A program made the translations under genes and the position numbers. A stretch of 64,000 nucleotides of DNA from Acidobacteriota bacterium. GTDB taxonomy: Bacteria > Acidobacteriota > CAIWXX01. The stretch lies in contig JACPPM010000301.1 of assembly GCA_016191015.1 (NCBI GenBank), forward strand, positions 5,472-69,471. The letters are read 5' to 3'. The notes below the pieces were generated by a model. That model was not told where the DNA came from and made no database searches. It saw only the letters and a list, made by a program, of their open reading frames with translations. Within the stretch, counting starts at the first letter, position 1. Each line of letters starts with the position of its first letter. Shown in pieces: positions 4,081 through 59,940 of the stretch.

Positions 4081-4387
4081 GTTGACCGTCGCGCGTGAGG
4101 GCGGTAGGCGCCGACCCAGGCAGCTGTGTCGATCCGTCTGGTCCTGCTTTCCTGAAAGGCGCCCGTAGGGCTCTAGGCTCGTCGCAGGATTGCGCCTGCG
4201 ACGAGAGGCCGCGTTGTGGCGCCGGGAGACCGGAAGGGAAAACTGCAGATTGCGCGGATTCCGCAGAGTTCCCGGAGCACGCATCTCGCTTCCGTTTGCG
4301 CTCAGCGGTCGGATCTCTGTAACGCCTCAGTGGAGTGGGGCGACTGTCCATCCTTGAACCAGACGTGGGCAAGTCCCCTTCCGGTCC

Positions 4388-4454
4388 AACGCAAAGACGC
4401 AAAGCCACCAAGATCGGTCCAGAGCTTCTTTGCGGCTTTGCGCCTTTGCGTTTG
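4388..4454. repeat. Palindrome with CGCAAAG(N) octamer-repeat arms (copy K)
   Basis: caacgcaaagacgcaaagcc ... ctttgcggctttgcgcctttgcgtttg; arms are reverse complements; 20 bp spacer. Confidence 0.7.
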
Positions 4455-4651
4455 AAAGGGTCTCGATACAATGCCGCTATCCCGACCTCGTCACAACCCA
4501 TGCGATCACCCCCACACCACTGAGGCACTACGGATCACTGAAATCTGCGGTTGTCCGGCTTCGGTCTCCTGATATAAGATCCCCTGCGGACTGATGGCAT
4601 TCCCGGTGATCTGCAAGCACTCTGAAAGGAGCATCCGAGGTGGGTAGGACG

Positions 4652-11585: not shown

Positions 11586-12025
11586 GTTTGCTCTCCGTCT
11601 ATTTTGTTAATGCGGCGCAGATGCCTGCCGCCCTCGAATCCGGTCGCCATCCATTTCTCGACGATGCGGCGTGCTTGTTCGGCGGTTGTCAACCGAGCTC
11701 CCAGCACCAGAATATTGCTGTCATTGTGCTGGCGCGAAAGGCGAGCCATGTCTTCGTCACAGCAGAGCGCCGCGCGGACACCGGGGAACCGATTCGCCGC
11801 GATCGACATCCCGATTCCGCTCCCGCAGATCAGGATCCCCTGTTCGTATCGGCCGGCCGAAACGCCCCCGGCGAGCTCGCGGGCCACATCAGGGTAGTCG
11901 TTCGGATTCTCGTCGGGACACCCGAGGTCGAGCACCTCGATCGACTGCGCCTCCAGGAACCGCTTCAGCTCGCTCTTGAGTTTGAACCCGGCGTGATCCG
12001 AGCCGATCGCTACCATCATGCGCAA
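11582..12025 (-). CDS. rpiB: Ribose-5-phosphate isomerase B
   Basis: [17 protein letters not shown]...[14 protein letters not shown] is the RpiB/LacAB signature. Overlaps the glyA start by 4 bp. Confidence 0.9.
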
Positions 12026-12100
12026 TATAGCCCACTGCTCGCCGCTGAATCAAACGAGTTGCGCATGGTGGTGTTTGAACGTAGAATTTGTCCCAAGCAG

Positions 12101-12856
12101 ATGGCACAGTTGAAGGTCCTGGTCGTCGAGGACAGCCCGACGCAACAACTCAAGACTCGTCTTCCCTTACTCAATGCGGGCTACGAAGTGGTCGTCGCGG
12201 CAAACGGCGAGGAGGGGTACCAGGCCGCGCTGGCAAACAAGCCGTCCGTGATCCTGCTCGACATGGTCATGCCCGTTTGTGACGGACCCGGCATGCTGGC
12301 CAAGATCAAGGACGCTCCCGAGCTCCGCGACATTCCCGTGATCATGCTGACGGCCACCTCCGAATCAGAATCCATCATGAATGCGATTTCGATGGGGGCG
12401 AAGGACTATATAGTCAAGCCATTCTCGATCGAGGTGTTTGAACAGAAGCTGACCAAGTTCTTCCGCCATCTCAACCCCAATCTGAGCCAGACCGAACGGA
12501 TCGCGGCCGAGATCGACCGGAAGATCATCCGATACGACGAGTACGAGGGGGCGCACTTGTTCGAGGTCAAACCGGACAATATGAAGCTCGGCCTCAAGTT
12601 GGTCTTCTCCTATATCCGGCGCTTCCTGGCCATCGGCGAGCGTAATTTCGTGATCGACTTCTCTTCGTACCCGTCGCTTCCGGATGAGGCGATGACTACG
12701 CTCGTGGCCTGCATGTCCTCGCTGCAGAAGGGATCTGAGATCGTTCGCTTCATCGTGACGAATCCCAAGGTCCAAGGGCAGCTCCAAAGCGCGCCGGACA
12801 CGGCCTACGTCGGGATTCTGCGAAGTCGGAAAGAAGTCGTGCGGCACGGCTTCTGA
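12101..12856 (+). CDS. Response-regulator receiver domain fused to a STAS (anti-sigma-antagonist-like) domain
   Basis: KVLVVEDS...ILLDMVMP...DYIVKPF is a REC domain. The C-terminal FVIDFSSYPSLPDEAMTTLV region is STAS-like. Alternative start at 12065. Confidence 0.7.
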   Translation: MAQLKVLVVEDSPTQQLKTRLPLLNAGYEVVVAANGEEGYQAALANKPSVILLDMVMPVCDGPGMLAKIKDAPELRDIPVIMLTATSESESIMNAISMGAKDYIVKPFSIEVFEQKLTKFFRHLNPNLSQTERIAAEIDRKIIRYDEYEGAHLFEVKPDNMKLGLKLVFSYIRRFLAIGERNFVIDFSSYPSLPDEAMTTLVACMSSLQKGSEIVRFIVTNPKVQGQLQSAPDTAYVGILRSRKEVVRHGF

Positions 12857-13027
12857 GTTCAAAGTTCAAAGTTCAATGCTCCACCCCGGAACGGCGGGCG
12901 CCGGTGTGGGCCTGAGCGCCGTCGGTCCCGTCGCATGAACATATTGCGGTCTGGGCACTCTCGCTTCACCCGAATCACCCGGGGCGCCTCCGGGTACTTT
13001 GAACTTTGAACTTTGAACTTTGAACTT
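12855..13027. repeat. Extragenic palindrome, GTTCAAA-heptamer type (copy B), filling the whole intergenic space
   Basis: Left arm gagttcaaagttcaaagttcaatg overlaps the TGA stop at 12854-12856. Right arm ctttgaactttgaactttgaacttc runs into the start of the next ORF. Spacer about 118 bp. Confidence 0.85.
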
Positions 13028-14801
13028 CTTGCACTATGTTATCGCGGTGACAGAGCACCAGATTCGGAGTGATGCGGAATTCATCCTGAGGGCGAGCAAG
13101 GTCCTCAACTCGACACTGGATTTCGATGAGCTGCTGACGCGGATTGTTGAGCTCACGGCCGAGGCGGTCGGTGCCGAGACCGGTTCGCTCCTTCTCTACG
13201 ACGAACGGCGCGGCGGACTGATCTTCGAGGTCGCGTTGGGTGAGAAGGGGGATCTGATCAAGGAGTTCGTCGTCGGGCCGGGCCAAGGAGTGACGGGAAG
13301 GGTGTTCGAGACCGGAGAGCCTGCGGTCGTCAACGACACTCAGTCGTACGCCGCGTTCTCGGGGACGATCGACAAGAAGGTGGGGTTCGAGACCCGTTCG
13401 ATCCTTTGCGTTCCTCTCCTGCTGCGCGGAAGGACGATCGGCGTGGTCGAAGCGATCAACAAATCGCGGGCCCGGCTTTTCGACGATCAGGATCTGCGGA
13501 TGATGCGATCTCTCGCGGACCTCATCGCCATCGCGATCGACAACAGCCGACTGTACTTGCAGGCCAGGTTGGAGAGGCTCGAGAACCAGTCGCTTCTGGA
13601 AGTGGCCAAGCGGGTCAACTCGGCCCTGAAGCTCGACCAGGTCCTCCAGATGATCGCCGACTCGATGCATCAGGTCATCCACTTCGACGCGCTGGCCATC
13701 TACCTGGTCAGACCAGGCACACGGGACATAGACCGCCTCATCCTGAACGGCTTCGACGAGCACCAGCACGATTCTGTGAGGCTGAAGGTGGGAGAAGGGA
13801 TCGTGGGGTGGTGCATCAGCAATGGCGAGTCCACTCTCGTGGCCGATGTTTCCCGCGACCCACGATACGTGAAGGCGCGCGACGAGACGCGTTCAGAGAT
13901 TGTCGCGGCTCTGTTTGTCGGGGGCCGCTGCATCGGTGCGATCAACCTCGAGAGCAACCGCATGTCCGCCTGGGATCAGCACCAGCTCGAGCTGCTCCGC
14001 GCATTTGCCGGACAGGTGTCTATCGCGATCGAGAAGGCGATGCTGCACCAGGAGCTCCTCGAGAAGAAGGAGCTCGAGCAGGAGCTCAACGTGGCCCACC
14101 GCATCCAGCGCACGTTCCTGCCGCGTCACCAGCCCGTCATCCCTGGCTACGATGTCGCCGGCCTGAACATCCCATCCGAGAAAGTCGGCGGTGACTACTA
14201 CGATTTCATCCGGATCATCGACACACAGCTCGGAATCGTGATCTCCGACGTCTCCGGAAAGGGGATCCCGGCCGCGCTGATCATGGCGAGCTTCAGGGCG
14301 AGCCTGTTGGCCGAAATCCGGAACAACTTCGCCATCCGCACGATCATGGCCAAGGTCGGGAAGCTTCTGCGGGAGTCCATTGAGCCACACCACTTCGTGA
14401 CGGCTCTGTACGGAGTCCTCGACATCCCCAACCGTGTTTTCACTTACGCAAACGCGGGGCACAACCCGGCAATCCTCATCCGCGCAGATGCGAGTGTCAA
14501 GTTCCTCAAAGACGGCGGCCTGCCCCTCTGCGTCCTCGAACAAGCCACCTACGCTGAAAAGCGCTTGCAACTGCGGGTCGGAGACCTCCTCGTGTTCTAC
14601 ACCGACGGAGTGACCGAGGCGTTCAACGAGCAGGAGGAGGAGTTCGGGCTCGAACGCCTCATCGCGGCTCTCCTGGCCGTCTACCCTCTGAGCGCTCGAG
14701 ACATCGTGGGGAGTGTCGCACAGGTCATCAGGGAATTCAACGGTACCGCTAGCCCCTCCGATGACCTCACTCTCGTAGCCCTCAAGTGCGTCCCCATTTG
14801 A
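13020..14801 (+). CDS. GAF-GAF-PP2C (SpoIIE/RsbU-like) serine phosphatase
   Basis: Two GAF domains (LLYDERRGGLIF...; ...IGAINLES...) followed by a PP2C domain (GGDYYDF...ISDVSGKG...YTDG). Start is uncertain: TTG 13020 lies inside the repeat, and GTG 13050 is possible. Confidence 0.85.
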   Translation: MNFLHYVIAVTEHQIRSDAEFILRASKVLNSTLDFDELLTRIVELTAEAVGAETGSLLLYDERRGGLIFEVALGEKGDLIKEFVVGPGQGVTGRVFETGEPAVVNDTQSYAAFSGTIDKKVGFETRSILCVPLLLRGRTIGVVEAINKSRARLFDDQDLRMMRSLADLIAIAIDNSRLYLQARLERLENQSLLEVAKRVNSALKLDQVLQMIADSMHQVIHFDALAIYLVRPGTRDIDRLILNGFDEHQHDSVRLKVGEGIVGWCISNGESTLVADVSRDPRYVKARDETRSEIVAALFVGGRCIGAINLESNRMSAWDQHQLELLRAFAGQVSIAIEKAMLHQELLEKKELEQELNVAHRIQRTFLPRHQPVIPGYDVAGLNIPSEKVGGDYYDFIRIIDTQLGIVISDVSGKGIPAALIMASFRASLLAEIRNNFAIRTIMAKVGKLLRESIEPHHFVTALYGVLDIPNRVFTYANAGHNPAILIRADASVKFLKDGGLPLCVLEQATYAEKRLQLRVGDLLVFYTDGVTEAFNEQEEEFGLERLIAALLAVYPLSARDIVGSVAQVIREFNGTASPSDDLTLVALKCVPI

Positions 14802-14999
14802 GGGACTAGGGGCTAGGGACTAGGGTCCGGACCGATCTTGGCGCGGATCGGACACCACGTGGGTGCGACGCTTGCCTGACCCCCGGTGGGGTGGCTTCTT
14901 GATGGTCCGGAGATCGGTTCAATCCTTCACGGTGCTGACAATCTCTTGTCAAGGTCTCGGCGCTGTGGGCGTAGTCCCCAGCCCCTAGCCCCTAGCGCC
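14802..14999. repeat. Extragenic palindrome, CTAGCCC-heptamer type (copy C)
   Basis: Left arm gggactaggggctagggactagggtcc begins 1 bp after the TGA stop. Right arm gtagtccccagcccctagcccctagcgcc. About 142 bp spacer that holds a perfect TGACAA-N4-TTGTCA palindrome. Confidence 0.85.
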
Positions 15000-15280
15000 T
15001 ACTTTTCATTCTGGCAGCCGGCACGGGCGTTATAGGAATGTATGCCTGTGCGGACGGGTCTGGAGAATTGACGAACCCCTCGTTGCCACGCATCGTGAAG
15101 GCCAGGACTTTTGGCTCTCTGGCGGGAGCTGGGTCTTCAGCCGCGGGCTCGGCGTGCCCCACAGAGATTCCGAAGCGCATACAGAGCACCACAGAAGACG
15201 CGCTCCCTCAGAGAGATCATGAGAGGGGCGATTCCGGTATTCCAATCAACTTATCCCATGGGGAGAGGAGACCAGGCGAG

Positions 15281-15994
15281 ATGAAGAAGTGGTTTGGGGC
15301 CACGTTCCTGGCCGTGATGGTCGGGGGGACGGCGTCGGCCGCGGTCCGGTTCGTGCCGATGGAGGAGATCGCGGCCGAGGCGGACACGGGAGTCGTCGGG
15401 CGGGTTGTTGACAAGTATTGTGCGTGGGACAACGAGCACAAGATGATCTGGACTCACTACATCGTGGACCAGATGCAGCACGTATTCGGCAAAGACGTTG
15501 AGGCCCGGTTCGAGCTCAACTTCGCCGGCGGCACGGTTGACGGCAAGACGATGATTGTCACCGAGACGCCGGAGCCCGAGATCGGTCAGGAGTACGTTTT
15601 CTTCGTGTACGACGCCACGAAGAAGTTCTCGGCGGCGACAGTCGGGCACTTCCAGGGCCTTTTCAAGATTGTCCGGAACCCGCAGACCGGCTTCACGCAG
15701 CTCGTCAACGGCGAAAACCGGCTCGTGGGTGGAGACGAAGATGGCCGGATCATTGCCGGCCCCGGCGTGACCGTGGATGCAGACAACCACATTCATCTCG
15801 CCCCGCTCAGCAGGGAGGAAGCCGGCACGCCTGAAGCCGAGCCGGTCATCCGCGACTATCGCGGCCAGATCGTCCCGGAGGGCGCGCGCGCCATCGCCGA
15901 TGCGCCAGGAGAGAAGCCCCTGGCCCCGATCGACGCCGACGCGTTCATTGACTATATGCGCGATCTGCGCGCACGCATCCGCGGTGAGAAGTAG
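15281..15994 (+). CDS. Secreted hypothetical protein, co-transcribed partner of the downstream metzincin
   Basis: Signal peptide MKKWFGATFLAVMVGGTASAA with a GGAGA SD. Stop lies 9 bp before the metalloprotease start. Confidence 0.6.
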   Translation: MKKWFGATFLAVMVGGTASAAVRFVPMEEIAAEADTGVVGRVVDKYCAWDNEHKMIWTHYIVDQMQHVFGKDVEARFELNFAGGTVDGKTMIVTETPEPEIGQEYVFFVYDATKKFSAATVGHFQGLFKIVRNPQTGFTQLVNGENRLVGGDEDGRIIAGPGVTVDADNHIHLAPLSREEAGTPEAEPVIRDYRGQIVPEGARAIADAPGEKPLAPIDADAFIDYMRDLRARIRGEK

Positions 15995-16003
15995 GAGGGC
16001 GCG

Positions 16004-17491
16004 ATGAAGAAAACACTCGTTTCCCTGGTTCTCCTTCTCATCGCGGTTTCCCCAGCTCTGGCCCAGAACAGCGCCGACTGGCACGGGTGCTGGTGCGGCG
16101 GCTATTCGACCTCGCCCAAGACAGTGTACTGCTACGAGGGCTCCGGGTTCTCCGGCGGCTGCACGTCGCAGATCAACTACTGGAACACCCACGCGGGGGT
16201 GTTCAGCCTGGGAGCCAACCTGAGCGCGATCGGTGCCCCGGGCAACGGCAAGAGTGAAGTCAACTGCCCGATCACGACATCGCAGGCAAGCAGCGTATAC
16301 GGATACTCGATGCAGTCGTCTCTGTACGGTGTCGCCTTGATGGAGCCTTCCTCAGCCTTCGGGAACTTCAACGAGTGCGAGTCGATCGGTTCACCGAACG
16401 GCCAGCCCTCCGGCCAAGGATGCACCACCTGGACGCAGGCTGACGTGCTCATCAACGCCAGCTTCTCGTCGGGCTGGACTACCTCGTACACCGCCTATGA
16501 CGGCAAGGCCGTCGTCGCCACGACCGTGCTCCACGAAGTGGGTCACACCCTCGGCTTCCATCACGTCTTCCAGCACTTCTCGACAATGAACTACATGGAA
16601 GACGACAGCGGATGGTTCGTGACGCGGATCGACGCCAATTCCGTGCGCGACCATTATCCGACGGTCGCCAAGAGCGTGACCGACGCGGCCGTGTATCCGT
16701 TCAAGTACGGGTCGAGCCAGTACGCCGAGACCTACGCCACCTTTTCGCCGACCTCCGTCGCGGCGGGCGGCACCGTGTCGGTATCGAACCTGCGAGTGGA
16801 GAACGTCGGCAACGCGTCGAGCCTTTCGAACGTTGTGGTGACCTTCTACCTCTCCACCGACAGCAGCATCACCACCTCGGACACGGCGATCGGGACCATG
16901 AGCTGGTCCTCGTTCTCGACCTGGTGGGAGTCATCCTCGGCCATCAATCTGACGGTTCCGACTGGCACAACGGCGGGCACGTACTACATCGGTGGAATCG
17001 TGACCGTGAACGGGTCACAGGATTCCGTAAGCCTCAACAATTCCTTCGTGGTCCGCACCCGTAGCGGCTCGTCGGGAACCCCCCGCGCGCTCACGGTTTC
17101 CACGGGCGGCGGCGGCGGCGGCGGCACGACGATGAACGAAACCGAGTCGAATAACTCGCGGACATACGCCAACGTCGTTTCGACCTCCGGCACACAGGTC
17201 ACCGGCTATATCAGCAGCTCGAGCGACGTCGACTACTTCAAGGTGACGATTCCGGGGAAGAAAACGCTCTCGGTGGCTGTCACGGTCCCGGCGACGACCT
17301 CGATCGACTACGACGTCCGCCTCTACAACAGCAGCGGCTCTTACCTGACGGGCTCGGAGCAGGATGCCGGCATCAACGAGGCCTTCACCTACTACAACTC
17401 ATCCAGCTCCTCACGGGTGTACTACATCAAGGTCTATCGCTACACGGGGTACTCGACGACCCTGCCCTATGTGATGACCGTGAGCTGGTAG
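16004..17491 (+). CDS. Secreted zinc metalloprotease (metzincin, HExxHxxGxxH) with a C-terminal PPC/pre-peptidase-like domain
   Basis: Signal peptide; HEVGHTLGFHH motif; Ser/Thr-rich linker; a poly-Gly stretch encoded by (GGC)7; C-terminal beta-domain. Confidence 0.85.
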   Translation: MKKTLVSLVLLLIAVSPALAQNSADWHGCWCGGYSTSPKTVYCYEGSGFSGGCTSQINYWNTHAGVFSLGANLSAIGAPGNGKSEVNCPITTSQASSVYGYSMQSSLYGVALMEPSSAFGNFNECESIGSPNGQPSGQGCTTWTQADVLINASFSSGWTTSYTAYDGKAVVATTVLHEVGHTLGFHHVFQHFSTMNYMEDDSGWFVTRIDANSVRDHYPTVAKSVTDAAVYPFKYGSSQYAETYATFSPTSVAAGGTVSVSNLRVENVGNASSLSNVVVTFYLSTDSSITTSDTAIGTMSWSSFSTWWESSSAINLTVPTGTTAGTYYIGGIVTVNGSQDSVSLNNSFVVRTRSGSSGTPRALTVSTGGGGGGGTTMNETESNNSRTYANVVSTSGTQVTGYISSSSDVDYFKVTIPGKKTLSVAVTVPATTSIDYDVRLYNSSGSYLTGSEQDAGINEAFTYYNSSSSSRVYYIKVYRYTGYSTTLPYVMTVSW

Positions 17492-17511
17492 CTCAGAGTC
17501 TCGCACCGACG

Positions 17512-17546
17512 AGGGGAGCCTGGTTCCCGCCAAGCTCCCCTTTTTC
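17512..17546 (+). terminator. Rho-independent terminator downstream of the metalloprotease
   Basis: gaggggagcctggttcccgccaagctcccc followed by ttttt. Confidence 0.6.
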
Positions 17547-17658
17547 GTCTTCGGACGGACGCGCCGCAGCGATCGTACCCCCAGACATGCATGGACACGG
17601 GCAATGATGCCGGGTACTATCTTCTCGAAGCCGGCGATTTGGGCAAGGGAGCGATCTG

Positions 17659-20600
17659 GTGCTACTGCGCGCTGCGAAAGTCTTCTGTCTCCTCTTCTTG
17701 GTCTTCATCGGCACGCCCTGCTGGGGGCTCGATCCGTCGAAGGCCTTGACACAGTACCGGCATGATGTCTGGCAGACCCGCGACGGGCTGCCCCAGAGCA
17801 GCGTCGAGTCGATGGTGCAGACCCGGACCGGGTATCTGTGGCTCGGCACGCAGGAGGGGCTCGCTCGTTTCGATGGCGTTCGATTCGCGGTGTATGACAA
17901 GAGCAACACCAAGGCCATTCGGCACAATCGCATCCTCGCTCTCCTCGAGGACCGCCGAGGGTCACTCTGGATTGGAACGGAAGGCGGAGGCCTTGTCGAG
18001 CTCAGCGACGGGCTTTTCCGCAACTTCTCCAAGAGTGAGGGGTTGCCCGACGAGCGCGTATTAGCGCTGGCGGAGGATCATGATGGCAGGCTCTGGGTGG
18101 GCACCGGCAGCGGGCTTGCGTGCTACCGGGACGGTACGGTCGACGCGGGAAGGAGCGTGCCGGAGCTCATCGGCACGCCCATCGAGTCGCTGGCGGTCGC
18201 CGCAAATGGGAAGCTCTGGATCGGCACGGCAGGACGTGGGCTCTTTCGTTACGATCATGCGCAGGTCGAGCGGGTGGGGCCCGATGGAGAGGCTCAGAGC
18301 ACGGTCGCCAAGGTCTTCTGCGACGCGGACGGGAGCGTCTGGTTCGCCTCGAATGCGCGTCTCTATCGCCTCCAAGAGGGACCGAGCGCGCGGGTTGATG
18401 AGCAGTCGTGGGCCCGCTGGGGGAGCATCGGCGAAATCTACCGGGACCGCCAAGGCTCTCTCTGGGTTGGAACCGACGCCGGCGTTGTGAGGTTTCGGGA
18501 TGGTCGTGTGGAGTCCTACTCGGTCAAGGACGGTCTCTCCAACGACGTCATCCACTGCATTCTCGAAGACCACGAAGGCAGCCTCTGGATCGGTACGATG
18601 GACGGCGGCTTGAACAGATTCGCAGACGGTGCCTTCACGACGTACTCGACGGCTGAAGGGCTCTCCCACGACATCGTCAGTCCGATCTATCAGGATCGGG
18701 AAGGGCGCATCTGGATCGGGACGCGCGGAGGCGGCGTCAACTGCTATGCACGCGAGGGATTCACGACCTACACAGCGAGGGACGGGCTGGCCGACGACTT
18801 CGTCCAAGCCATCGTCCAGGATCGCGAGGGGACACTGTGGTTCGGCACGAAACGCGGCGGCCTTTGCAGCCTCCGCGAAGGCAGGTTCAAAACCTACACC
18901 GATCGCGACGGTCTTCCGATCGCATCCGTGCGCGCGCTCTTCGAGGATCGGCGCGGCGATCTTTGGGTTGGGACTCTGAACCACGGCCTCGCCCGATTTC
19001 GGGACGGCGGATTCCAGTTGTTCACGACGAAGGACGGCCTGACCAACAACACCGTCTTTTTCATCCTCGAAGACCATGAGGGTACCGTCTGGTTCGCCAC
19101 CAACGGCGGCGGTCTCAACTACTACCGCGACGGCCGATTCGGCGCGATCACGACGAAAGAGGGTCTCTCGATCGACATCGTCAACACACTCCATGAAGAC
19201 GCCGCCGGCACACTGTGGATCGGAACATATGGCGGCGGGCTCAACCGGCTGACGCACGGGCGCCTGTCCTCCTACACGACCCGCGAGGGTCTTTTCGATG
19301 ATGCCGTCTTCCGAATCCTCGAGGACGGCAGCGGCAATCTCTGGATCTCGTGCAACAAAGGAATCTACCGCATCGCGAAGCATCAGTTCGATGAGCTGGA
19401 TCGGGGCGGGAGGCGTTTGCTCGAACCCGCCGCGTTTGGCGTCGTTGACGGGATGAAAAACCGTGAATGCAACGGTGCCGATCAGCCGACCGGCTGGAAG
19501 ATGCGCGACGGGACGCTCTGGTTCCCGACCATCCAAGGTGCCGTGATGGTCGACCCCGCGCATCTGCCCACGAACACGCTTCCCCCGGCGGTTGTCATCG
19601 AGGAGCTGCGCGTGGACGACCGCGTTGCCGGCATCGCCGCAACCCCGGAAATCCCTCCCGGGGCTCAGAGGGTCGACATCCAGTACGCGGGGCTGAGCTT
19701 CCGGGTGCCGGCGAGGGTTCGTTTCCGCTACAAACTCGAAGGGTTCGACGGCGACTGGGTCGATGCGGGCGCACGGCGGACTGCCTACTACACGCGCCTG
19801 CCACCGGGCTCATACCGGTTTCGCGTTCAGGCCTGCAACGATAGTGGTGTCTGGAACACGGTCGGTGCCACGCTCGGCCTCGTGATCATTCCCCACATCT
19901 ATCAGAGGCCGTTATTCTACTTCGCGCTCATGGCGGTCGCTGCCATCCTCGTGATTTCTATCCATCGCCTACGGGTACAGCGGCTGAAGAGACGCGAACG
20001 AGAGCTCGTCGAGATCGTTGAACAGCGAACGCAGAGTCTGCGGCTGGAGATGGAGAGGACCGCCCGGGCGCTCCGCGAGGCGGAGGAGCAGCGGGAAATC
20101 GCACATGCGGCCAAGACCGAGGCCGAAGCGGCCAACCGGATCAAGAGCTGGTTTGTGGCGAACACGAGCCATGAGCTGCGCACGCCGATCAACTCGGTCC
20201 TCGGCTATAGCGAGATGCTGATAGAGGAGGCCGAGGAGAGCGGGAATCTCGTCGCCATCCCTGACCTGAGAAAGATCCACGCCGCCGGGCGACATCTTCT
20301 CGGGTTGATCAACGACATCCTGGACCTTTCGAAGATCGAGGCCGGCAAGCTGGACCTGCAACTCGACACTTTTGACCTGGGCGCGTTGGTCGAAGAGGTC
20401 GCTGCGAGTGTGCGGCCGCTCATCGAGAAAAACGGCAACGCGCTTGCCGCCGATGGAACTGATGTGGCCGGATCGATCTGCGCCGACCCCGCTCGCGCCC
20501 GCCAGATCCTGTTGAACCTCTTGAGCAACGCGGCGAAGTTCACGCGTGACGGGGAGGTGCGTCTCGAGGTGAGGCGCGAGACGGATCGCGTGTTGATGCG

Positions 20601-20871
20601 TGTCATCGATACGGGCATTGGAATGACGTCCGATCAAATCGCGCGGCTCTTCCAGGCGTACACTCAAGCTGGCGCAGATACGAGCCGCAAGTACGGCGGC
20701 ACCGGCCTCGGGCTCGTCATCAGCAGGCGTCTCGCCCAAATGATGGGCGGCGAGATCTCGGTGGAAAGCGCGCCGGGCAAAGGCTCCACGTTCACCCTGA
20801 CGCTCCCGGCGCGAACACCGGCGGGCGAAAAGGAGGATCGCGGTGGCTCGAGGATGGCCGCTGCACAGTAG
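17659..20871 (+). CDS. Hybrid sensor histidine kinase with periplasmic two-component-regulator propeller repeats and a Y_Y_Y domain, one TM segment, HisKA and HATPase_c
   Basis: About 14 Reg_prop repeats (GxLWIGTxxGGL); a TM helix near aa 750; H-box [10 protein letters not shown]; a G-box ATPase domain. Confidence 0.85.
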
Positions 20872-21065
20872 TCCACACTAGTCCGGAGGCGCACCGCCGC
20901 GCACGCAGGTCCCATCCTCACTACCACCAAGTCACCATGGCACCAAGAAACTACCAAGGGGTTTCTCTCCCTCATTCGTGCCCCTTGATGTCTTCGTGGT
21001 CCGGACGTCAGCTCCGGCATCCAGACGGTTGAGATGACCTGGGCCAGGAATGAGCGAGAAGGCAC

Positions 21066-22328
21066 CTATTGGCCGGGCCTGAGCACCTGGCGTATCGCGT
21101 CCAGCCGGGTCGTCCCTTCAGAGTGAGTGGGCACGATCCAACCCCCTTCCGAGAGCTCGTTCCACGCATACATGATGATCGTGCTGGCCTCAGCGGATGC
21201 AGGATTGCCCCTGATCCACTGTACGCCTTCGCCCAGGTGCGTCGCTATCTGCTCGGCGGTCGCGTACTCCACAACAGGGCCTGAGGTATACCCGCCATAT
21301 CCCCAGACATCATCCCGATGCGGTCTCGGATCCCAGCCGGCGCTCACGGTAGGGATCGCTTTGAGTCCCGCATCTCGAAAGCTATTCCACAGTGCGCTGT
21401 CTGCCTGCGCCAAGGCATCATAGGGGAACCAAGTATAGTTGTCCGGGTCCTCGTAGCCCCCGGGAATCGGGCTCGTATAGGACGTCACCGCATTCACACC
21501 GAGCTCCGCGACAGCCCGTTCCCCCTCATCGGCTGACCAGACCAACGCGGCGATGTACGGGTTCTTCATCCCGGCGCGTCGCGCCTTCTTGCGAAAATCG
21601 TCCAACATCTGCCGCAGCTTCCGCCAACTGCCCAAGATCTTTTCCGGATCTTCTCCCGCCAGCCAGAAGAACACGAGTGGCCTGCGTCTCATGACCCTCT
21701 GGTAGGACGGTTCCTGCATCTGGCCTATTGCCTCCTGCACTTCGAAGTCCCAGTTGTGCTGGCCGAAGTAGTAGTCACCGGACCCCGGCATCCCCATCAT
21801 CAGCGAAAACTTCACCTTGGACTTGAGCTGGCTGGAGAGGTAGTACTTCCGACTGCGGTTCATGTCCTCTGCCTTCCACCCGTTTGTGGGGTCGACCAGC
21901 GGATTGCCTTGTGGGTCCCGAAGGACGTACATGTTGAAGATCCAGAAATCGATGCCACCCGCGGCCGCATACGCGATCTCCTGATCCATGACCTCCTGAG
22001 AATCGGAGAAGGCCTCGAGCTGTCCGTCCGCGAGCGTCCTGGCATAGAAGGGATGGCGGTAGCGCCACTCATCGGGTGCCAGGACTGAAACGTACGGAGA
22101 GCCGCGGTACCAACCGTCCCAGCGGATCGCCCCCACAAGAGCGTTTCCCTTCTTCACCGGTACACCTGCGTGGCGGGGGGCGGCGGTCTCGAGATGTGGA
22201 CAGCGGTCACCCGACCCGCTGCGATCCCGGGCCACGCTAGCCGATGCATGCCCGCTCGCGAAGACGGGCTCGATGGGCGGCGCGAAGGCGATCGCGATTG
22301 AGAGCGAGAGTGGGGCGCAGGGTTTCAT
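21066..22328 (-). CDS. Secreted glycoside-hydrolase-like protein (family not assignable by eye)
   Basis: Signal peptide MKPCAPLSLSIAIAFA with a GGAGG SD. Trp/Tyr-rich TIM-barrel-like composition. Start trimmed from 22937 to 22328. A paralogous C-terminal remnant lies at 27230-27484. Confidence 0.65.
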   Translation of the reverse strand: MKPCAPLSLSIAIAFAPPIEPVFASGHASASVARDRSGSGDRCPHLETAAPRHAGVPVKKGNALVGAIRWDGWYRGSPYVSVLAPDEWRYRHPFYARTLADGQLEAFSDSQEVMDQEIAYAAAGGIDFWIFNMYVLRDPQGNPLVDPTNGWKAEDMNRSRKYYLSSQLKSKVKFSLMMGMPGSGDYYFGQHNWDFEVQEAIGQMQEPSYQRVMRRRPLVFFWLAGEDPEKILGSWRKLRQMLDDFRKKARRAGMKNPYIAALVWSADEGERAVAELGVNAVTSYTSPIPGGYEDPDNYTWFPYDALAQADSALWNSFRDAGLKAIPTVSAGWDPRPHRDDVWGYGGYTSGPVVEYATAEQIATHLGEGVQWIRGNPASAEASTIIMYAWNELSEGGWIVPTHSEGTTRLDAIRQVLRPGQ

Positions 22329-22617
22329 CCTATCCTCCTTGGTGGTACGTCGTACTGAGTCATATCTGCCATTCCCGAATACAGAGGGTGCACAACCCAT
22401 GCCAGCGGCCGAATCGACCCCATCTGCATGCCAACTCTCGCGGTTCCGGCGATGCGACGGGAGTCCGAATTCGAATTTCAGAGAGTCGAGATCGAAAGCC
22501 GTATGGTGTCGCAGAATTTCCTCACTCGCGCTGGCGTCTCTACCATCCGGCACGTTCATGCCCGCTTTGCCAGCATGAGCCCGCTTTGCTAGTATTGCGC
22601 CCTTCGGTGGAGGGAGG

Positions 22618-23490
22618 ATGGAGGAGTCGCGGGCGATCGGAGCAGCGCGTGAGGTGCCGCGTGCAATTGATGTTGCCAACTTCGTGCGCCTGGAACACAC
22701 GCTTTTCTCTCTGCCCCTGTTGTTTGCGGGGGCGCTGCTGGCTGAACAGGCCTGGCCATCGGTGCGGACTTCACTCCTGATCGTCGCCGCAGGGACCGGC
22801 GCTCGCACCGCCGCCCTCGCCCTGAACCGCATCATCGACCGCCGGATCGACGCGGCCAATCCGCGGACTCGCGTGCGCGAGCTGCCGGCCGGGAAACTGA
22901 AGATCGGGCAGGCGTGGGGCGTCTGCGTCGCGGGCATCGCTCTCTACCTCGCCTCCGCGGGCTTGCTCGGGCGCCTGACCCTCCTCCTCTCCCCAATCCC
23001 CCTCATCGTCTTCACCTGCTACCCGTATCTGAAGCGATTCACGACCCTCGCTCACTTCGGCGTCGGTCTCGGCCTGGCCCTGGCTCCTCTCGGCGCCTGG
23101 GTTGCAGTGACGCAGCGGATCCTGCCAGACCTGCCTATCGGGTTGCTCACGCTGTTTACACTCCTGTGGGTCGCAGGATTTGACATCATCTATGCCACGC
23201 TCGACATCGAGTTCGACCGCAGCCATGGGCTTCACTCGATACCCGCGCGCATCGGATCAAAAGCCTTGTTGATCGCGGCCTTTCTGCACCTGCTCGCCCT
23301 GCTGTGCCTGCTCGCTCTCGCGATGACCTCTCTGGACGGCTTCTATCGCTACTACGCGCTGGGCGCCGTTGGTGTGCTTTTCGCCGTCGAGCACTTCTTC
23401 TCCCGTAAGGTCAACTTCGCATTCTTCCACGTCAATTCGGTATTAGGATTCTTCGTTCTCCTGTTCATTGTCGCGGGGGTGCAACGGTGA
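22618..23490 (+). CDS. UbiA-family polyprenyltransferase (MqnP-like, late futalosine pathway)
   Basis: About 8 TM helices; NRIIDRRIDAANPRT and a second Asp-rich motif; sits immediately upstream of the UbiX- and UbiD-like genes. Confidence 0.75.
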   Translation: MEESRAIGAAREVPRAIDVANFVRLEHTLFSLPLLFAGALLAEQAWPSVRTSLLIVAAGTGARTAALALNRIIDRRIDAANPRTRVRELPAGKLKIGQAWGVCVAGIALYLASAGLLGRLTLLLSPIPLIVFTCYPYLKRFTTLAHFGVGLGLALAPLGAWVAVTQRILPDLPIGLLTLFTLLWVAGFDIIYATLDIEFDRSHGLHSIPARIGSKALLIAAFLHLLALLCLLALAMTSLDGFYRYYALGAVGVLFAVEHFFSRKVNFAFFHVNSVLGFFVLLFIVAGVQR

Positions 23491-30774: not shown

Positions 30775-31849
30775 AGCGGCGTCGGGAGAACGACTGACGG
30801 CTGGGGAAGCGTTGCAAACGTTCCGTTCAGCACCCCTCCTGGATCTCGCCCACGCCGCGCACGGCATCCGCAACCGGAGGGCACCCCAGGGTCAGGTGAC
30901 ATTCGTCATCGACACAAACCCCAACTACACCAACATCTGCGACACTGACTGCACGTTTTGTGCGTTCTACCGGAAGCCGGGCGACAACGAGGAAGGGTAC
31001 ACACTCACGGTCGACCAGATAGCAGCCAAGATCCAACCTGCCGTGGATGCGGGAGCATCGACGCTTCTCATGCAGGGAGGTCACAATCCGGCTCTTCCGC
31101 TCTCGTACTATATCGACCTGATCCGAGGTCTCCGCGAGCGTTTCCCGCGGCTCCATCTGCACCTGTTTTCGGCGCCCGAGGTCAGGGCCATCGCGAAGTT
31201 CTGCGCTCTCACTGTGAGGGAGGTGCTCGCCGCGTTCTGGGACGCGGGGCAGCGGACCCTGCCTGGGGGAGGAGCCGAGATCCTGACGCAACGCGTCCGC
31301 CGGAAGATCAGCCCGAAGAAGGGCGCGCCCGAGGAATGGCTCGACGTGATGCGGATCGCGCACCAGATCGGATACCGGTCGACGGCGACGATGATGTTCG
31401 GCCACGTCGAAGCCGACGAGGACATCATCGAGCATCTGGATGCCCTCCGGCGGCTGCAGGATGAGACGGGTGGTTTCATGAGCTTCATTCCCTGGAGCTT
31501 CAAGAAAGGCGACACACCTCTGTCGAGGATCGTTAAGACCGAGGTGGCGCCGGCGCGCTATCTGAGGATCCTTGCCGTCGCGAGGCTCTTTCTGGACAAC
31601 TTCGCGCACATACAGTCATCCTGGTTTTCCGAAGGGCGCAAGGCCGGGCAGCTCGGGTTGTGGTTTGGCGCGGATGATTTCGGAGGAACGATTCTCGAAG
31701 AAAATGTGCTCCGATCCGCGAAGTTCGTGAATACTACTTCTGTAGAGGAAGTGAAGATGCTGATCCGGGAAGCCGGCTTCACGCCGGCTCGGCGCAACTC
31801 ATTTTTCGAGGTCCAGGAAACGTTGAGTGTCCAAGAAGTTGGGTATTGA
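30749..31849 (+). CDS. Radical-SAM menaquinone biosynthesis enzyme, MqnC/MqnE family (paralog 2)
   Basis: CDTDCTFCAF cluster; start at MEISGLL; 26-bp overlap with mqnA. Confidence 0.85.
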   Translation: MEISGLLDKAASGERLTAGEALQTFRSAPLLDLAHAAHGIRNRRAPQGQVTFVIDTNPNYTNICDTDCTFCAFYRKPGDNEEGYTLTVDQIAAKIQPAVDAGASTLLMQGGHNPALPLSYYIDLIRGLRERFPRLHLHLFSAPEVRAIAKFCALTVREVLAAFWDAGQRTLPGGGAEILTQRVRRKISPKKGAPEEWLDVMRIAHQIGYRSTATMMFGHVEADEDIIEHLDALRRLQDETGGFMSFIPWSFKKGDTPLSRIVKTEVAPARYLRILAVARLFLDNFAHIQSSWFSEGRKAGQLGLWFGADDFGGTILEENVLRSAKFVNTTSVEEVKMLIREAGFTPARRNSFFEVQETLSVQEVGY

Positions 31850-32086
31850 CATGAAATGGCAAGAACCTCGCCGGGGCGAGATCTTCCGGACTCCTCTCAG
31901 GAAAGCAGGAAGTGAGGAAGGCAGGAAAGGACCCGTCATATCGGACGCTCAGGGTGGCACGGACCGCTCTCACGCTCTCACGCTCCAGGCGCGCGAAGCG
32001 CGCCGGACGCTCTCACGCGCGGCCGGTGTTACGACGGCGGTGGTGGCCGGGGCGAGGCGCTGACAGTGAACGAATCGAAGGTGGTG

Positions 32087-32908
32087 ATGCAGGCCGGATG
32101 CAGTCCCGATCCTGACGATGTTTTTATGTTCTACGGATTCGAGAAGGGCCTTGTCGAAACGCCTTTCAGGATCGAGCCGCGATACGAGGATATCCAGACG
32201 CTGAACCGCAAGGCACTTGACGGTGTGTACGAGATCTCAGCCATATCAGCCTACATGTATCCGTTTGTCTGCCACCGCTACGCCTTGCTCGCCGCCGGGG
32301 CCAGCGTCGGGAGGGGCTACGGACCGGTTATCGTGGCGAACCGCCGCTATGATGCCGACGATTTGAGGAAGCTGAGCGTGGCGATCCCGGGCAGGTTCAC
32401 AACATCGTATCTGCTCTGCCGCATGTATCTGCCGGCCTTCAAAGAGATCGAGATGCCATTCGAGGATGTCGTGCCGGCGCTGATGGACCGGGACGTGGAT
32501 TGCGCCCTTCTCATCCACGAAGCTCAGATCACCTACAGAGAGCTCGGTTTCTACAAAGTAGTCTCTCTCTACGACCTCTGGCATGGTTCCACGGGTCTCC
32601 CGCTGCCACTCGGACTCGAGGCGGTCCGATTGGCGGAGGCCGATCGCTGGGGCCGCGCGATCAACGATGCTCTCGTCCTCAGCATCGAGCTGGCGAAGCG
32701 GGACTTCGAACCCGCCATGGAGCATGCGATCTCTCATCGGCAGACCGGTCTCGCTCCCGCCCAGGGGCGGAGGTACCTGGAGATGTACGTGAACGACGAC
32801 ACCTTGGGGATGCCGGCGGACGTTCGCAAGGCCCTTGAAATGATGTACACGACGGCACACGAGCTGGGGCTGATTCCGGAAGTGCCTCCGCTCAGGATCG
32901 TGGAATGA
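32087..32908 (+). CDS. mqnD: 1,4-dihydroxy-6-naphthoate synthase MqnD
   Basis: MQAGCSPDPDDVFMFYGF matches the MqnD SPCPNDTF N-terminal signature. Confidence 0.75.
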   Translation: MQAGCSPDPDDVFMFYGFEKGLVETPFRIEPRYEDIQTLNRKALDGVYEISAISAYMYPFVCHRYALLAAGASVGRGYGPVIVANRRYDADDLRKLSVAIPGRFTTSYLLCRMYLPAFKEIEMPFEDVVPALMDRDVDCALLIHEAQITYRELGFYKVVSLYDLWHGSTGLPLPLGLEAVRLAEADRWGRAINDALVLSIELAKRDFEPAMEHAISHRQTGLAPAQGRRYLEMYVNDDTLGMPADVRKALEMMYTTAHELGLIPEVPPLRIVE

Positions 32909-32917
32909 CGATGAATC

Positions 32918-33019
32918 AGAGTTCAAAGTTCAAAGTTCCAAGTTCAAGCCCGCGTCGATCCTGTGGGCGTGGACCTGCGGGTCCCGTTGAGCTCTGAACT
33001 TTGAACTTTGAACTCATGC
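32918..33019. repeat. Extragenic palindrome, GTTCAAA-heptamer type (copy D)
   Basis: agagttcaaagttcaaagttccaagttcaag ... ctgaactttgaactttgaactcatgc; begins 10 bp after the mqnD stop and ends 31 bp before the pyk start. Confidence 0.85.
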
Positions 33020-33050
33020 TGCGACACGCAGAAAGGGTTGCGTCCCGGAC

Positions 33051-37265: not shown

Positions 37266-37485
37266 GTGACCTCACCGTCGACGCGGAAGGCGTGGAGCCG
37301 AAGCCCTGCGCGGAGCGAAGGGGCCCACAGTAACCCCGGGTACGATCAGAAAGTGAAAGGGTGAAAGACCGGAAGCGTGGAGCGATTCGGACCTGTCTCA
37401 CCCGCCCTGCGTCGGCCACGCCAGCTTCCATGGCGTGCCTACGCGCCCGATGCAAGCAGATCCTCGCAGAATCCCACGATCGCCT

Positions 37486-37517
37486 CCGGCCCTAGCCCCT
37501 AGCCCCCAGCCCCTCTC
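37486..37517. repeat. Single-arm CTAGCCC heptamer array abutting the dapF stop (copy E)
   Basis: ccggccctagcccctagcccccagcccctctc lies immediately 3' of the dapF TGA on the minus strand. Confidence 0.7.
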
Positions 37518-44303: not shown

Positions 44304-44305
44304 AG

Positions 44306-44455
44306 CTGGCAGCCGTTAGCCCGAAGCGTCTGGTTCGGAGACTCTGGGCGAACGGATACGGGCTCTGCTGGCATTCCCGCTGCAGCGAGAGGGCCGCCGT
44401 TACAGGTCCGGTCCGGAGCTAATAGCTAACGGCTGATAGCTAATGGCTAACCAGC
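44306..44455. repeat. Extragenic palindrome, TTAGCC type (copy G), 3 bp after the frr stop
   Basis: ctggcagccgttagcccgaagc ... ggagctaatagctaacggctgatagctaatggctaaccagc. The right arm overlaps the 3' end of the convergent gene. Confidence 0.8.
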
Positions 44456-59088: not shown

Positions 59089-59173
59089 GAACCCGCCGGA
59101 TGGCGCGGATTCAGGGCAGCCTATTGTGCCCGGCATTGCATCCCTGTATACTCCGCGTTCGAACGAACGTTCG

Positions 59174-59863: not shown

Positions 59864-59867
59864 CTTT

Positions 59868-59920: not shown

Positions 59921-59940
59921 ATGCGATCGTGGAGGCACTC

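Follow-up and report, generated by a model that had tools for sequence, protein, structure and literature searches.

Results

GTTCAAA arrays occupy three same-strand gene junctions

In the stretch of Acidobacteriota DNA analysed here (64,000 nucleotides; the window), a response regulator gene is separated from a downstream phosphatase gene by two inverted arrays of the heptamer GTTCAAA. TRF and a pattern search found GTTCAAA-type arrays (3–6.7 copies, 100% matches) at exactly three loci of the window, B, D and I, with 16–17 matches against 0.03 expected by chance, and Pfam placed all three between same-strand genes. The arrays and their neighbours are as follows.

12101–12856, plus strand: B, upstream gene, response regulator, 251 aa (Pfam Response_reg; NCBI MBI2841152.1)
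12857–12877, unstranded: B, left arm, three GTTCAAA units, the last reading GTTCAAT
12878–12997, unstranded: B, unique GC-rich spacer with internal hairpins
12998–13025, unstranded: B, right arm, four TTTGAAC units
13047–14801, plus strand: B, downstream gene, GAF-GAF-PP2C (SpoIIE-type) phosphatase, 584 aa (Pfam; NCBI MBI2841153.1)
32066–32908, plus strand: D, upstream gene, menaquinone biosynthesis protein, VitK2_biosynth, mqnD-like (Pfam)
32921–32948, unstranded: D, left arm, four units of which two are variant (GTTCAAA, GTTCAAA, GTTCCAA, GTTCAAG)
32949–32986, unstranded: D, GC-rich spacer with two small hairpins
32987–33013, unstranded: D, right arm (TTGAGCT, CTGAAC, TTTGAAC, TTTGAAC)
33051–34472, plus strand: D, downstream gene, pyruvate kinase (pyk), start ATG 33051 (Pfam; 100% match to NCBI MBI2841167.1)
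59126–59863, plus strand: I, upstream gene, TetR-family regulator (Pfam)
59860–59915, plus strand: I, one-armed array, TTGAC and TTTTGGAAC followed by six TTTGAAC units
59941–60963, plus strand: I, downstream gene, Zn-dependent dehydrogenase (adh), 340 aa (Pfam; exact match to NCBI MBI2841194.1)

These assignments agree with the initial annotation for GAF-PP2C, mqnD/pyk and tetR/adh, but the gene upstream of B, described there as REC-STAS, encodes only a response regulator, with no STAS domain detected by Pfam. Its close homologues are all 251 aa long. A 426-aa open reading frame from 11576 was rejected as the upstream gene, being over-extended relative to the homologues and the NCBI model, which give 251 aa.

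Left arms had been proposed to begin at or just after the upstream stop, and those of B and D do so, 1 nt past TGA 12854–12856 and 12 nt past the mqnD-like stop codon (32906–32908), respectively. Copy I has no complementary left arm and so cannot form the proposed hairpin; the TetR TGA stop (59861–59863) falls inside its first degenerate repeat unit. The view that such elements fill whole co-directional gaps accordingly holds, nearly, for B and D, but I is a single run.

At the other end of the gaps the picture differs from that first described. The phosphatase has three in-frame start candidates, TTG 13020 (as already noted), TTG 13029 (not listed before) and a GTG at 13047 rather than 13050; the last of these is favoured by the N-termini of homologues and by the NCBI model. 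Arrays of this kind break short-read assemblies and mislead start calling, here towards TTG 13020 or 13029. Measured to the starts, the right arms end 21 nt (B), 37 nt (D) and 25 nt (I, ATG 59941) upstream, not 0–31 bp, and the SD-like GAAAGGG at ~33030 and the GGAGG at 59931–59935 lie outside the arrays. Occlusion of ribosome-binding sites by the arms is thus unsupported at B, D and I, and appears unlikely: true starts lie 21–37 nt past the right arms, and each of the three downstream genes has its ribosome-binding region outside them.

Pairing of the two arms in mRNA, also suggested at the outset, is predicted for B and D, where complementary arms span the gap, but not for I, which is unpaired. 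The arms of B form a perfect stem of 21–22 bp (−86.6 kcal/mol, z −3.5), while the stem of D covers 29 positions with 3 mismatches, including one G·U (−70.4 kcal/mol, z −5.4); folding z-scores across B and D ranged from −3.5 to −6.1. For the run at I, shuffling gave more structure than the real sequence (z about +2.8; −1.15 with flanks).

Outside the arms we found little that the elements share. The B spacer has no second copy in the window and no homology to other spacers beyond 9–13-mers. Homology beyond the simple repeat had been argued from a tail, GAACTCAT..GC, which does occur literally in both D and I; we do not read it as homology, because the D orthologue in relative L208 reads GAACTCAAGC and the tails of about 14 other GTTCAAA pairs are unrelated. 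A consensus scan of the plus strand from 12000 to 15200 returned no sigma-70 promoter or intrinsic terminator near B, and Rfam 15 covariance models gave no match over the whole window at the gathering threshold or over 12800–15100 at E ≤ 1.

Together, these features are best read as two non-coding hairpin elements (B and D), each consisting of (GTTCAAA)n, a unique GC-rich spacer and (TTTGAAC)n, and a one-armed relative (I).

Heptamer and octamer arrays are frequent in the window

Coding sequence makes up about 84% of the window, yet its 19 short-period arrays are all intergenic. At least six heptamer or octamer families besides GTTCAAA have comparable layouts in other intergenic regions, for example:

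237–375, unstranded: TAGCCNT, 4.6 copies, spacer, ANGGCTA, three copies; the first TAG is the stop of the upstream open reading frame
4385–4455, unstranded: octamer ACGCAAAG, two copies, 13-nt loop, CTTTGCG, three copies; stem of 29 positions
14801–15001, unstranded: GGGRCTA, 3.6 copies, spacer, TAGYCCC, four copies; begins at the phosphatase stop codon

Many arrays open 0–11 nt past a stop codon, also after minus-strand genes; overall, placement ran from −1 to 11 nt relative to stops and 19–37 nt from starts. The paired-arm architecture also occurs in a convergent gap (44300–44450). One-armed arrays are present at I, 26875, 37490 and 54522, so arm pairing is not obligatory. Among co-directional gaps of 40 nt or longer, 11 of 24 carry a heptamer or octamer array; with roughly half of such gaps so occupied, B, D and I are no special device of three gene pairs.

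Period-7 arrays occurred at 10.9 per 100 kb, against 0–1.6 per 100 kb for other periods and none in shuffles, and heptamers were the over-represented long simple-repeat period even in unrelated loci.

TCCGG or CCGGA adjoined arrays at 9 of 40 flanks (6% background), a post hoc count that would fail correction over all 5-mers.

The paired layout recurs in other genomes

(GTTCAAA)3 was found at more than 119 genome loci. GTTCAAA...TTTGAAC pairs were present at 14 loci, mostly in Acidobacteriota/Pyrinomonadaceae MAGs, and the reverse polarity at none. A pair in L025 was left out as a likely fold-back assembly artefact, since it lies at the end of a contig and its palindrome reaches 27 nt into the flanking sequence. 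For one-armed arrays among the 119 loci, TTTGAAC lay on the sense strand in 32 cases and on the other in 8, as judged from crude gene calls. In some other MAGs the right arm stops 6–10 nt before an ATG, with no room for an SD sequence (for example L118, GAACTGACCATG, and L044).

Unrelated metagenome loci had the same paired layout with other units, among them an ATTTTCC family (L129) whose A/U polarity is opposite to that of GTTCAAA. On viral contigs, GTTCAAA arrays outnumbered those of three composition-matched heptamers by a factor of 3 to more than 10, and in one such contig the paired architecture flanks a whole small gene. A metagenome scan with the phosphatase alignment gave homologues of at most 49% identity, which contributed no extra orthologous gaps and served as a background set.

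Elements turn over rapidly while arms stay complementary

The lineages compared include the window MAG, GCA_040960765.1, and the 92% and 87–90% identical populations in SRR22388139 and SRR22388342. Repeat number differed between the window and its relatives at each locus: the B left arm has three units against seven in a close relative, the D right arm three against five, and I has six TTTGAAC units against three in a 92% identical relative (L209). In an 87–90% identical lineage the arms read GTTTCAA/TTTAAAC at B and GTTTAAA/TTTAAAC at D. A variant unit, GTCTAAA, was mirrored by TTTAGAC in the opposite arm, and four pairs of the D stem were altered on both sides among relatives with complementarity kept; some arrays in L042 and L118 contain uncompensated variant units. 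The D spacer can still be recognised as homologous in L208, though diverged, and in L207 it hardly aligns. These comparisons show, at the level of sequence, that arrays appear at junctions of co-directional genes of operon type, gain and lose units, switch unit in all copies at once and keep their arms complementary.

More distant relatives (about 73–75% identical) differed further. In a 73% identical relative the orthologous B gap carries GTRGAGC repeats instead, such that a hairpin-forming heptamer element stays at this junction in three lineages although its sequence is wholly replaced. At the D junction in one of these relatives (L206), mqnD and pyk overlap by 4 nt (ATGA) and there is no element; in the window, ATGAC stands at both ends of the D gap, compared with a single ATGA in the empty site. 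Elsewhere, a 190-nt array-bearing segment (31825–32016) is missing from 93% and 87% identical relatives. Its octamer unit resembles its own flank, which suggests a local origin. A new stop codon arose where an insertion entered the 3′ end of a coding sequence. Such gain, loss and rewriting of elements between close relatives speaks against a conserved regulatory role tied to particular genes.

Mismatches within arms were also counted on the sense strand. The window had six A·C and one G·U, other loci leaned the opposite way, and pooling the window with these loci left no RNA-type (G·U versus A·C) mismatch signal, so that the complementarity of the arms may be a matter of DNA, with no function in RNA.

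Comparison with known repeats

Cyanobacterial STRRs, described from Calothrix and Anabaena, comprise several families of tandem heptamers that are intergenic and also found within operons. The arrays described here resemble them as dispersed tandem heptamer families, but unit sequences and taxon differ.

The heptamers of Xanthomonas (GGGAATC) and Nostoc (GGGGAYT) are about 90% intergenic and mostly between aligned ORFs, and Xanthomonas genomes contain 70–75 convergent inverted pairs each (Rehm et al. 2015, PMC4692102). In these pairs one array lies 0–50 nt after, or overlapping, a stop on the coding strand, with its partner on the opposite strand before the following ORF. Close relatives differ in repeat number, though as a rule single arrays stay single and paired ones paired, and in Nostoc inverted pairing is rare (PMC4692102). 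B, D and I likewise are head-to-tail heptamers in intergenic DNA, mainly between aligned ORFs, with the same placement relative to stops and starts and the same change in copy number from relative to relative, and B and D, but not I, form convergent opposite-strand pairs. GTTCAAA is A/T-rich, however, with no G run and no potential for a G-quadruplex, the feature given prominence for the Xanthomonas repeats and one for which the GGGRCTA family of the window would qualify. The present arrays differ further in belonging to Acidobacteriota, with many unit families per genome, mirrored variants and compensated arm changes.

TAACTGA direct repeats are found in marine Beggiatoaceae, cyanobacteria and Bacteroidetes (MacGregor 2015, PMC4679880). 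They provide stops in all frames, stand in sense orientation shortly before starts, often without a canonical SD sequence, and are almost never inverted, with 1 indirect set in 170 (PMC4679880). Copy I and the sense-biased one-armed TTTGAAC arrays resemble them, but the paired hairpin form is prominent here, and I, though sense-oriented, lies 25 nt from an ATG that has a GGAGG SD sequence. In Haemophilus influenzae hmw1A, a 5′-UTR hairpin containing (ATCTTTC)n is cut by RNase III and repeat number tunes expression (Rapun-Araiz et al. 2025, PMC12721329); the partner arm there is a non-repeat G-rich segment, the locus encodes a phase-variable adhesin and arrays have at least 11 units (PMC12721329). 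The stems predicted for B and D, by comparison, measure 21–29 bp, have repeats in both arms and lie among housekeeping genes.

REP/BIME sequences are extragenic hairpin repeats at gene 3′ ends and inside operons that stabilise upstream mRNA. REPs are imperfect palindromes of 20–40 nt that share a family consensus and come with a RAYT transposase, and REPINs are inverted doublets forming long hairpins. The arms of the present elements are instead simple tandem heptamers with unique spacers, and no RAYT was seen within the 64 kb. MITEs are a poor match, since the spacers of B, D and other pairs are unrelated, B has no duplication and only D has a possible one, of ATGA(C).

Discussion

Our preferred reading, to which we assign a probability of roughly 0.6, is that B and D are slippage-driven heptamer hairpins in operon junctions, members of a genome-wide and lineage-wide Acidobacteriota class, that alter mRNA processing or coupling. 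The arrays would originate and be maintained by replication slippage together with copying between arms of the quasi-palindrome (template switching), selection for pairing, or both. The gene pairs are plausibly co-transcribed, given that mqnD and pyk overlap by 4 nt in a relative, so each element would be carried within a polycistronic mRNA; from sequence, we infer both this co-transcription and the folding of the RNA in vivo. The folded form would be an A/U-rich stem of 21–30 bp closing a GC-rich core, situated between the upstream stop and a point ~20–40 nt before the next start. By its length, such an intercistronic double-stranded stem would be a typical substrate for a double-strand RNase (RNase III) and a barrier to 3′ exonucleases, and it probably affects mRNA processing or coupling. 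The most likely outcome would be changed processing or stability of both cistrons, with coupling of downstream translation set by repeat number; direct masking of ribosome-binding sites would be unlikely, and the unit sequence is probably read by no gene-specific factor.

A doubtful but serious alternative is that the elements are neutral by-products of heptamer slippage and palindrome correction, tolerated at gene 3′ ends and operon junctions with no effect on expression. Gain and loss among close relatives and the housekeeping neighbours would be equally compatible with such a functionless by-product. Heptamers are over-represented even in unrelated loci and, as cited in one study of heptamer repeats (PMC4692102), in bacteria generally; turnover is extreme, unit families are many and there is no sense-strand excess of G·U among arm mismatches. 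The insertion into a coding 3′ end that made a new stop would moreover explain stop-codon adjacency without function. On the other side, a perfect stem of 21–50 bp in a transcribed operon junction would very probably have consequences for RNases and ribosomes, one-armed TTTGAAC arrays favour the sense strand (32 versus 8, on crude gene calls), and the B junction has retained a hairpin heptamer element in three lineages through full sequence replacement.

We regard it as unlikely that the hairpin is a dedicated device for translational coupling or ribosome-binding-site control, in which a terminating ribosome melts the base of the stem and frees the right arm, the start being otherwise sequestered. 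Left arms abutting stops and right arms just upstream of starts would suit such a switch, as would the arms 6–10 nt from ATG in L118 and L044, and the unpaired (UUUGAAC)n, unusually unstructured and A/U-rich, is like a ribosome standby or enhancer leader; the element-free relative couples the same genes by an ATGA overlap. But at B, D and I the arms keep their distance from the starts (21, 37 and 25 nt) and SD-like sequences lie outside them, I has no partner arm, elements come and go or are rewritten in close relatives with the same genes, and the architecture is found equally in the convergent gap at 44300–44450 and round the small viral-contig gene.

Insertion of MITE- or REPIN-like mobile elements at gene junctions, by a trans-acting enzyme that recognises the hairpin or the heptamer and keeps each family uniform across the genome, is rather improbable. 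Presence/absence differences (D missing in L206; 31825–32016 missing from the 93% and 87% relatives), the single polarity of every pair, the ATGAC at both D gap ends against one ATGA in the empty site and the excess of GTTCAAA over composition-matched heptamers in viral contigs all point that way. So does the change from GTTCAAA to GTTTAAA at both B and D in one diverged lineage, although this cross-locus switch concerns two loci only, on metagenome contigs with assumed linkage. Against it, members of one family have no conserved core or spacer in common, B is without clear target-site duplications, arm length varies and edges are degenerate, unit families per genome are many, no transposase was noticed beside any copy, and the 190-nt insertion has an octamer unit similar to its own flanking sequence, as if of local origin.

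We give similarly little weight to an active genome-wide process that keeps families uniform and arms complementary and places new copies at ATGA/GTGA junctions, duplicating that signal. Its dedicated mechanism would be either a hairpin-specific enzyme or repeat turnover coupled to transcription and RNase III; if real, it would turn coupled operon genes into pairs split by a hairpin whose strength is tuned by repeat number.

Bidirectional transcription terminators are very unlikely. Hairpins do follow stop codons directly, and for both GTTCAAA and ACGCAAAG each strand has an A-rich 5′ arm and a U-rich 3′ arm, but no GC stem leads directly into a U-tract as in an intrinsic terminator, and the consensus scan of the B region was empty. 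The same genome has a canonical terminator at 17511–17545, in an ordinary gap about 90% conserved in relatives; at the D junction the two genes of a relative overlap by 4 nt; and other families, such as ATTTTCC in L129, show the opposite A/U polarity.

Least probable of all, in our view, are arrays serving as sites for a sequence-specific DNA- or RNA-binding protein at one unit per 7 nt, for which the heptad operators of ribbon-helix-helix proteins are a precedent. The strict 7-nt period, the sense bias of one-armed arrays upstream of genes, the preference for GTTCAAA over composition-matched units and the analogous position of TAACTGA repeats, for which a factor has been proposed (PMC4679880), are set against at least seven unit families in 64 kb, each needing its own factor, replacement of the unit at orthologous sites and no candidate protein. 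On comparison by eye, integron attC sites (core sites in opposite order and not matching), LexA boxes (wrong GTTC spacing) and the tRNA T-loop that GTTCAAA resembles (no stem context) were also dismissed.

Among the long simple repeats of bacteria, tandem heptamers show the strongest over-representation, and they have been noted since the STRRs. The window and its relatives add a paired inverted-array layout that does not depend on G-quadruplex potential, occurs commonly in Acidobacteriota (a major soil phylum that has been little studied) and has arms that evolve in concert, with compensated changes, as all other parts of the element are replaced. Should the hairpins act on mRNA processing or coupling, operon tuning would gain a widespread layer that evolves rapidly; if they have no effect, they would be a clear natural case of slippage with quasi-palindrome correction.

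Contigs of four relatives break off inside arrays.

Two GTTCAAA elements are predicted to form long hairpins

In the window (61% G+C), tandem GTTCAAA/TTTGAAC units were confined to three loci, each lying between same-strand genes. A 13-mer search with one mismatch allowed returned 16 matches against 0.03 expected, and a 17-mer search with three mismatches allowed returned B, D and I again and no further locus.

Layout of the GTTCAAA elements
B, between a response regulator and a GAF-GAF-PP2C phosphatase gene: stop TGA 12854-12856; GTTCAAA x3, 12857-12877; 120-nt unique GC-rich spacer; TTTGAAC x4, 12998-13025
D, between mqnD (menaquinone biosynthesis) and pyk (pyruvate kinase): stop 32906-32908; four GTTCAAA-like units, 32921-32948; 38-nt spacer; four TTTGAAC-like units, 32987-33013
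I, between TetR regulator and Zn-dependent dehydrogenase genes: TetR stop codon 59861-59863, lying within degenerate units; then TTTGAAC x6, perfect, 59874-59915

B was predicted to fold as a long hairpin (-86.6 kcal/mol, z -3.5) with a stem of 21 perfect pairs, and D likewise (-70.4 kcal/mol, z -5.4), its stem spanning 29 positions with 3 mismatches. The pairing of arms proposed in the initial annotation therefore stands for B and D; I, described there as a third such copy with a homologous tail, has no complementary arm and no hairpin fold, the bare array showing less structure than its shuffled versions (z about +2.8), and the tail homology was not upheld.

The neighbouring genes were confirmed by Pfam, and the window proteins match NCBI entries MBI2841152.1, MBI2841153.1, MBI2841167.1 and MBI2841194.1 exactly or at 100% identity. 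The gene upstream of B, thought to encode a REC-STAS protein, is a 251-aa response regulator (12101-12856) in which Pfam detected no STAS domain; a 426-aa ORF was rejected in its favour. Among the in-frame start candidates for the phosphatase (TTG 13020, TTG 13029 and GTG 13047), GTG 13047 coincides with the N-terminus of orthologues (65-77% identity) and of the NCBI model, and the dehydrogenase starts at ATG 59941, with GGAGG 5 nt upstream. With the starts so placed, the right arms end 21 (B), 37 (D) and 25 nt (I) short of the start codon, rather than the 0-31 bp first given. The ribosome-binding regions fall outside the arms at all three loci, making their direct masking unlikely.

Each end of the D gap carries ATGAC (within GAATGAC at the stop, 32904-32910; within ACATGAC at the start, 33048-33055), and L206, a relative lacking the element, shows just one ATGA, which overlaps (L206 2498-2505); the corresponding signals are TGA/GTGA at B and TGA/ATGA at I. 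The repeated ATGAC could reflect duplication of a target where stop and start signals overlap; it could also be coincidence, TGA being a common stop and A a common base at position +4.

GTTCAAA elements belong to a larger class of intergenic arrays

Across the window, 19 arrays with a period of 7 or 8 were counted, in at least seven unit families (GTTCAAA, TAGCCNT, ACGCAAAG, GGGRCTA, GTGGAGC, CAGGAAAG and CGCTCTCA), and the GTTCAAA elements are one family of this larger class. Every one of them is intergenic in a window that is ~84% coding. Under crude GC3-based gene calls, 24 co-directional gaps measure 40 nt or more, and 11 of these contain an array. Enrichment is specific to period 7, with 10.9 arrays per 100 kb compared with 0-1.6 for periods 5, 6 and 8-11, and 0 in shuffles. 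Arrays typically begin 0-11 nt past a stop codon, including after minus-strand genes, and in some the first TAG or TGA itself serves as the stop. The layout of array, spacer and inverted array recurs in three further gaps (237-375, 4385-4455 and 14801-15001).

CTAG-containing arrays (GGGRCTA, GCTAAYR and CACTAGTC) carry CCGGA(C)/GGTCCGG on their stop-distal side (14826-14835, 20880-20888, 37484-37489, 44404-44416 and 54514-54521). Of 40 array ends, 9 had TCCGG/CCGGA, a motif picked post hoc, no more than 22 nt away, where the background rate is 6%.

Arrays turn over rapidly among relatives

At B, contig L123 (95% nt identity) has seven left units to the window's three, around a homologous spacer, and L125 (92%) has the right arm as in the window. 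Contigs L124 and L120, which come from a single sample and have flanks ~90% identical, were merged by a 30-nt overlap within the array, a presumed join. Their element reads GTTTCAA x3...TTTAAAC x4 around a spacer too diverged to align. At unit position 4, T:A has replaced C:G in every unit of the two arms; a further change, from A to C, lacks compensation, and a hairpin is still predicted (z -2.25). In L121 (73-77%), GTRGAGC x4 occupies the orthologous gap together with a GC hairpin and a single inverted unit.

At D, L208 (93%) has five right units versus three in the window. The element in L207 (87%) reads GTTTAAA GTCTAAA GTTTCAA GTTTAGA ... TTTAAAC TTTAGAC TTTAAAC TTCAGAC, the odd unit GTCTAAA having its mirror in TTTAGAC, and an alignment fold of three D orthologues gave four stem pairs changed on both sides, with few broken pairs. 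L206 (75-81%) lacks any element, its mqnD and pyk genes having a 4-nt overlap (GAATGAGC). At I, L209 (92%) has three units versus six, between identical flanks.

As a control, a canonical intrinsic terminator (17511-17545; GAGGGGAGCCTGG...CCAAGCTCCCC TTTTT) after ORF 16004-17491 is ~90% conserved in L120; gaps that bear arrays thus evolve far more rapidly than ordinary ones, and ordinary terminators coexist with repeat hairpins in the window.

Presence/absence differences were also found. A ~190-nt segment (31825-32016; CAGGAAAG x4, CGCTCTCA x2.6 and GC hairpin GGCGCGCGAAGCGCGCC) is absent from L208 and L207, where the radical-SAM gene continues until it abuts mqnD; the window copy of that ORF is cut short by the insertion, with a new stop at 31847-31849. 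Its octamer unit resembles the right-flank sequence. A 1.46-kb stretch (14810-16267), containing a GGGRCTA/TAGYCCC pair, ORF 15038-15994 and the 5' end of ORF 16004-17491, is missing in L120 and L125 directly past the first GGGGCTAG of the phosphatase-stop array, reflecting either a deletion or an array-bounded insertion. Compared with window 12101-35122, the 75% relative (L121/L206) has a compact REC-PP2C-UbiA-flavoprotein-UbiD-mqn genes-pyk-lactamase_B series in which neighbours overlap or lie 0-13 nt apart; in the window lineage, several additional genes are present (15038-22937) and these junctions contain gaps that bear arrays.

Origin and possible action of the elements

These comparisons mark the elements as simple-sequence repeats that expand and contract, probably by slippage, with variant units spreading within arrays and the two arms being kept complementary. 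Complementarity could be upheld by selection on an RNA or DNA hairpin, or mechanically by template switching within a quasi-palindrome, a known mutational route (PMC4060949); counts of sense-strand G.U versus A.C mismatches in the arms do not separate the two.

The gene pairs look like operon partners, so a read-through transcript would carry an A/U-rich stem of 21-30 bp that closes off a GC-rich core. Stems this long are typical targets of RNase III, which is specific for double strands, and they impede 3' exonucleases. A heptamer-repeat hairpin in the hmw 5'-UTR of Haemophilus influenzae is cut by RNase III, affecting expression and repeat dynamics (PMC12721329). Given this stem length and precedent, we infer that the hairpin most likely would alter processing and stability of both cistrons and couple downstream translation in a repeat-number-dependent manner. 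That the arrays are a neutral by-product is a serious, though less likely, rival: neither stop-codon adjacency nor the filling of whole gaps requires a function, since elements may arise in junctions that once overlapped or spanned a few nt and would then make up the gap alone, as the 31825-32016 segment supports. For the initial interpretation, support extends to arm pairing but not to ribosome-binding-site control or a gene-specific role. Any function is putative, but mirrored unit variants, compensated arm changes, a unit switch shared by B and D and insertion polymorphisms where operon genes meet make the old puzzle of heptamer repeats more tractable.

Related repeats in other genomes and viral contigs

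The elements fall in an already known class of repeats; membership tests, with the terminator scan covering the + strand of 12000-15200, rejected a MITE, intrinsic terminator or Rfam family as their identity, and REPs are an unlikely match, the arms being simple repeats that lack a REP consensus. The closest description is that of the Xanthomonas GGGAATC heptamers, which are ~90% intergenic, mainly between aligned ORFs. On the coding strand they lie near a stop or overlap it; on the opposite strand they precede an ORF. They form 70-75 convergent inverted pairs per genome, differ in repeat length between species and have no assigned function (PMC4692102). The GTTCAAA family, unlike these, has no capacity for G-quadruplexes, so the paired layout is apparently not defined by G4 formation. 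Literature searches of incomplete coverage found no description of such repeats in Acidobacteria.

Scanning one genome per species, we found (GTTCAAA)3 at more than 119 loci in many phyla, with Acidobacteriota/Pyrinomonadaceae prominent. A partner array lay within 400 nt at 14 loci, in the order GTTCAAA...TTTGAAC in 14/14; the reverse was never seen among these, the window's two pairs and one viral contig. Pairs in these MAGs extend from one gene's stop to just before the next gene's start. One-armed arrays in co-directional gaps carried sense-strand TTTGAAC in 32 cases and GTTCAAA in 8 (our tally, crude gene calls), and this bias, with copy I, resembles the TAACTGA repeats of Beggiatoaceae (PMC4679880). 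Unrelated metagenome loci, retrieved via distant phosphatase homologues, showed the paired layout with other units (ATTTTCC, GATTTMA, GGGTGAAG and AGTRATC). Viral contigs held (GTTCAAA)3 at 43 loci, compared with 15, 0 and 4 for three composition-matched heptamers.

L018 (2317-2779) carries a ~100-nt unit of unique sequence plus (GTTCAAA)3-4 four times in tandem, closed by one TTTGAAC arm. In viral contig L212 (5095-5410, 63% GC), (GTTCAAA)5 and (TTTGAAC)3 enclose not a spacer alone but an entire small gene on the minus strand, its product of ~83 aa being a predicted coiled coil. L197 (1750-1817) pairs AGTRATC x3 with ACTGATT x5 across a 4-nt loop, its unit TTACTGA being one base off the Beggiatoaceae repeat. 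Short-read contigs of the relatives start or end within heptamer arrays (L120 1-34, L121 1-30, L124 3874-3903 and L125 1-27), so these repeats fragment metagenome assemblies, and L025 (1-170) is an apparent fold-back assembly artefact around an array.
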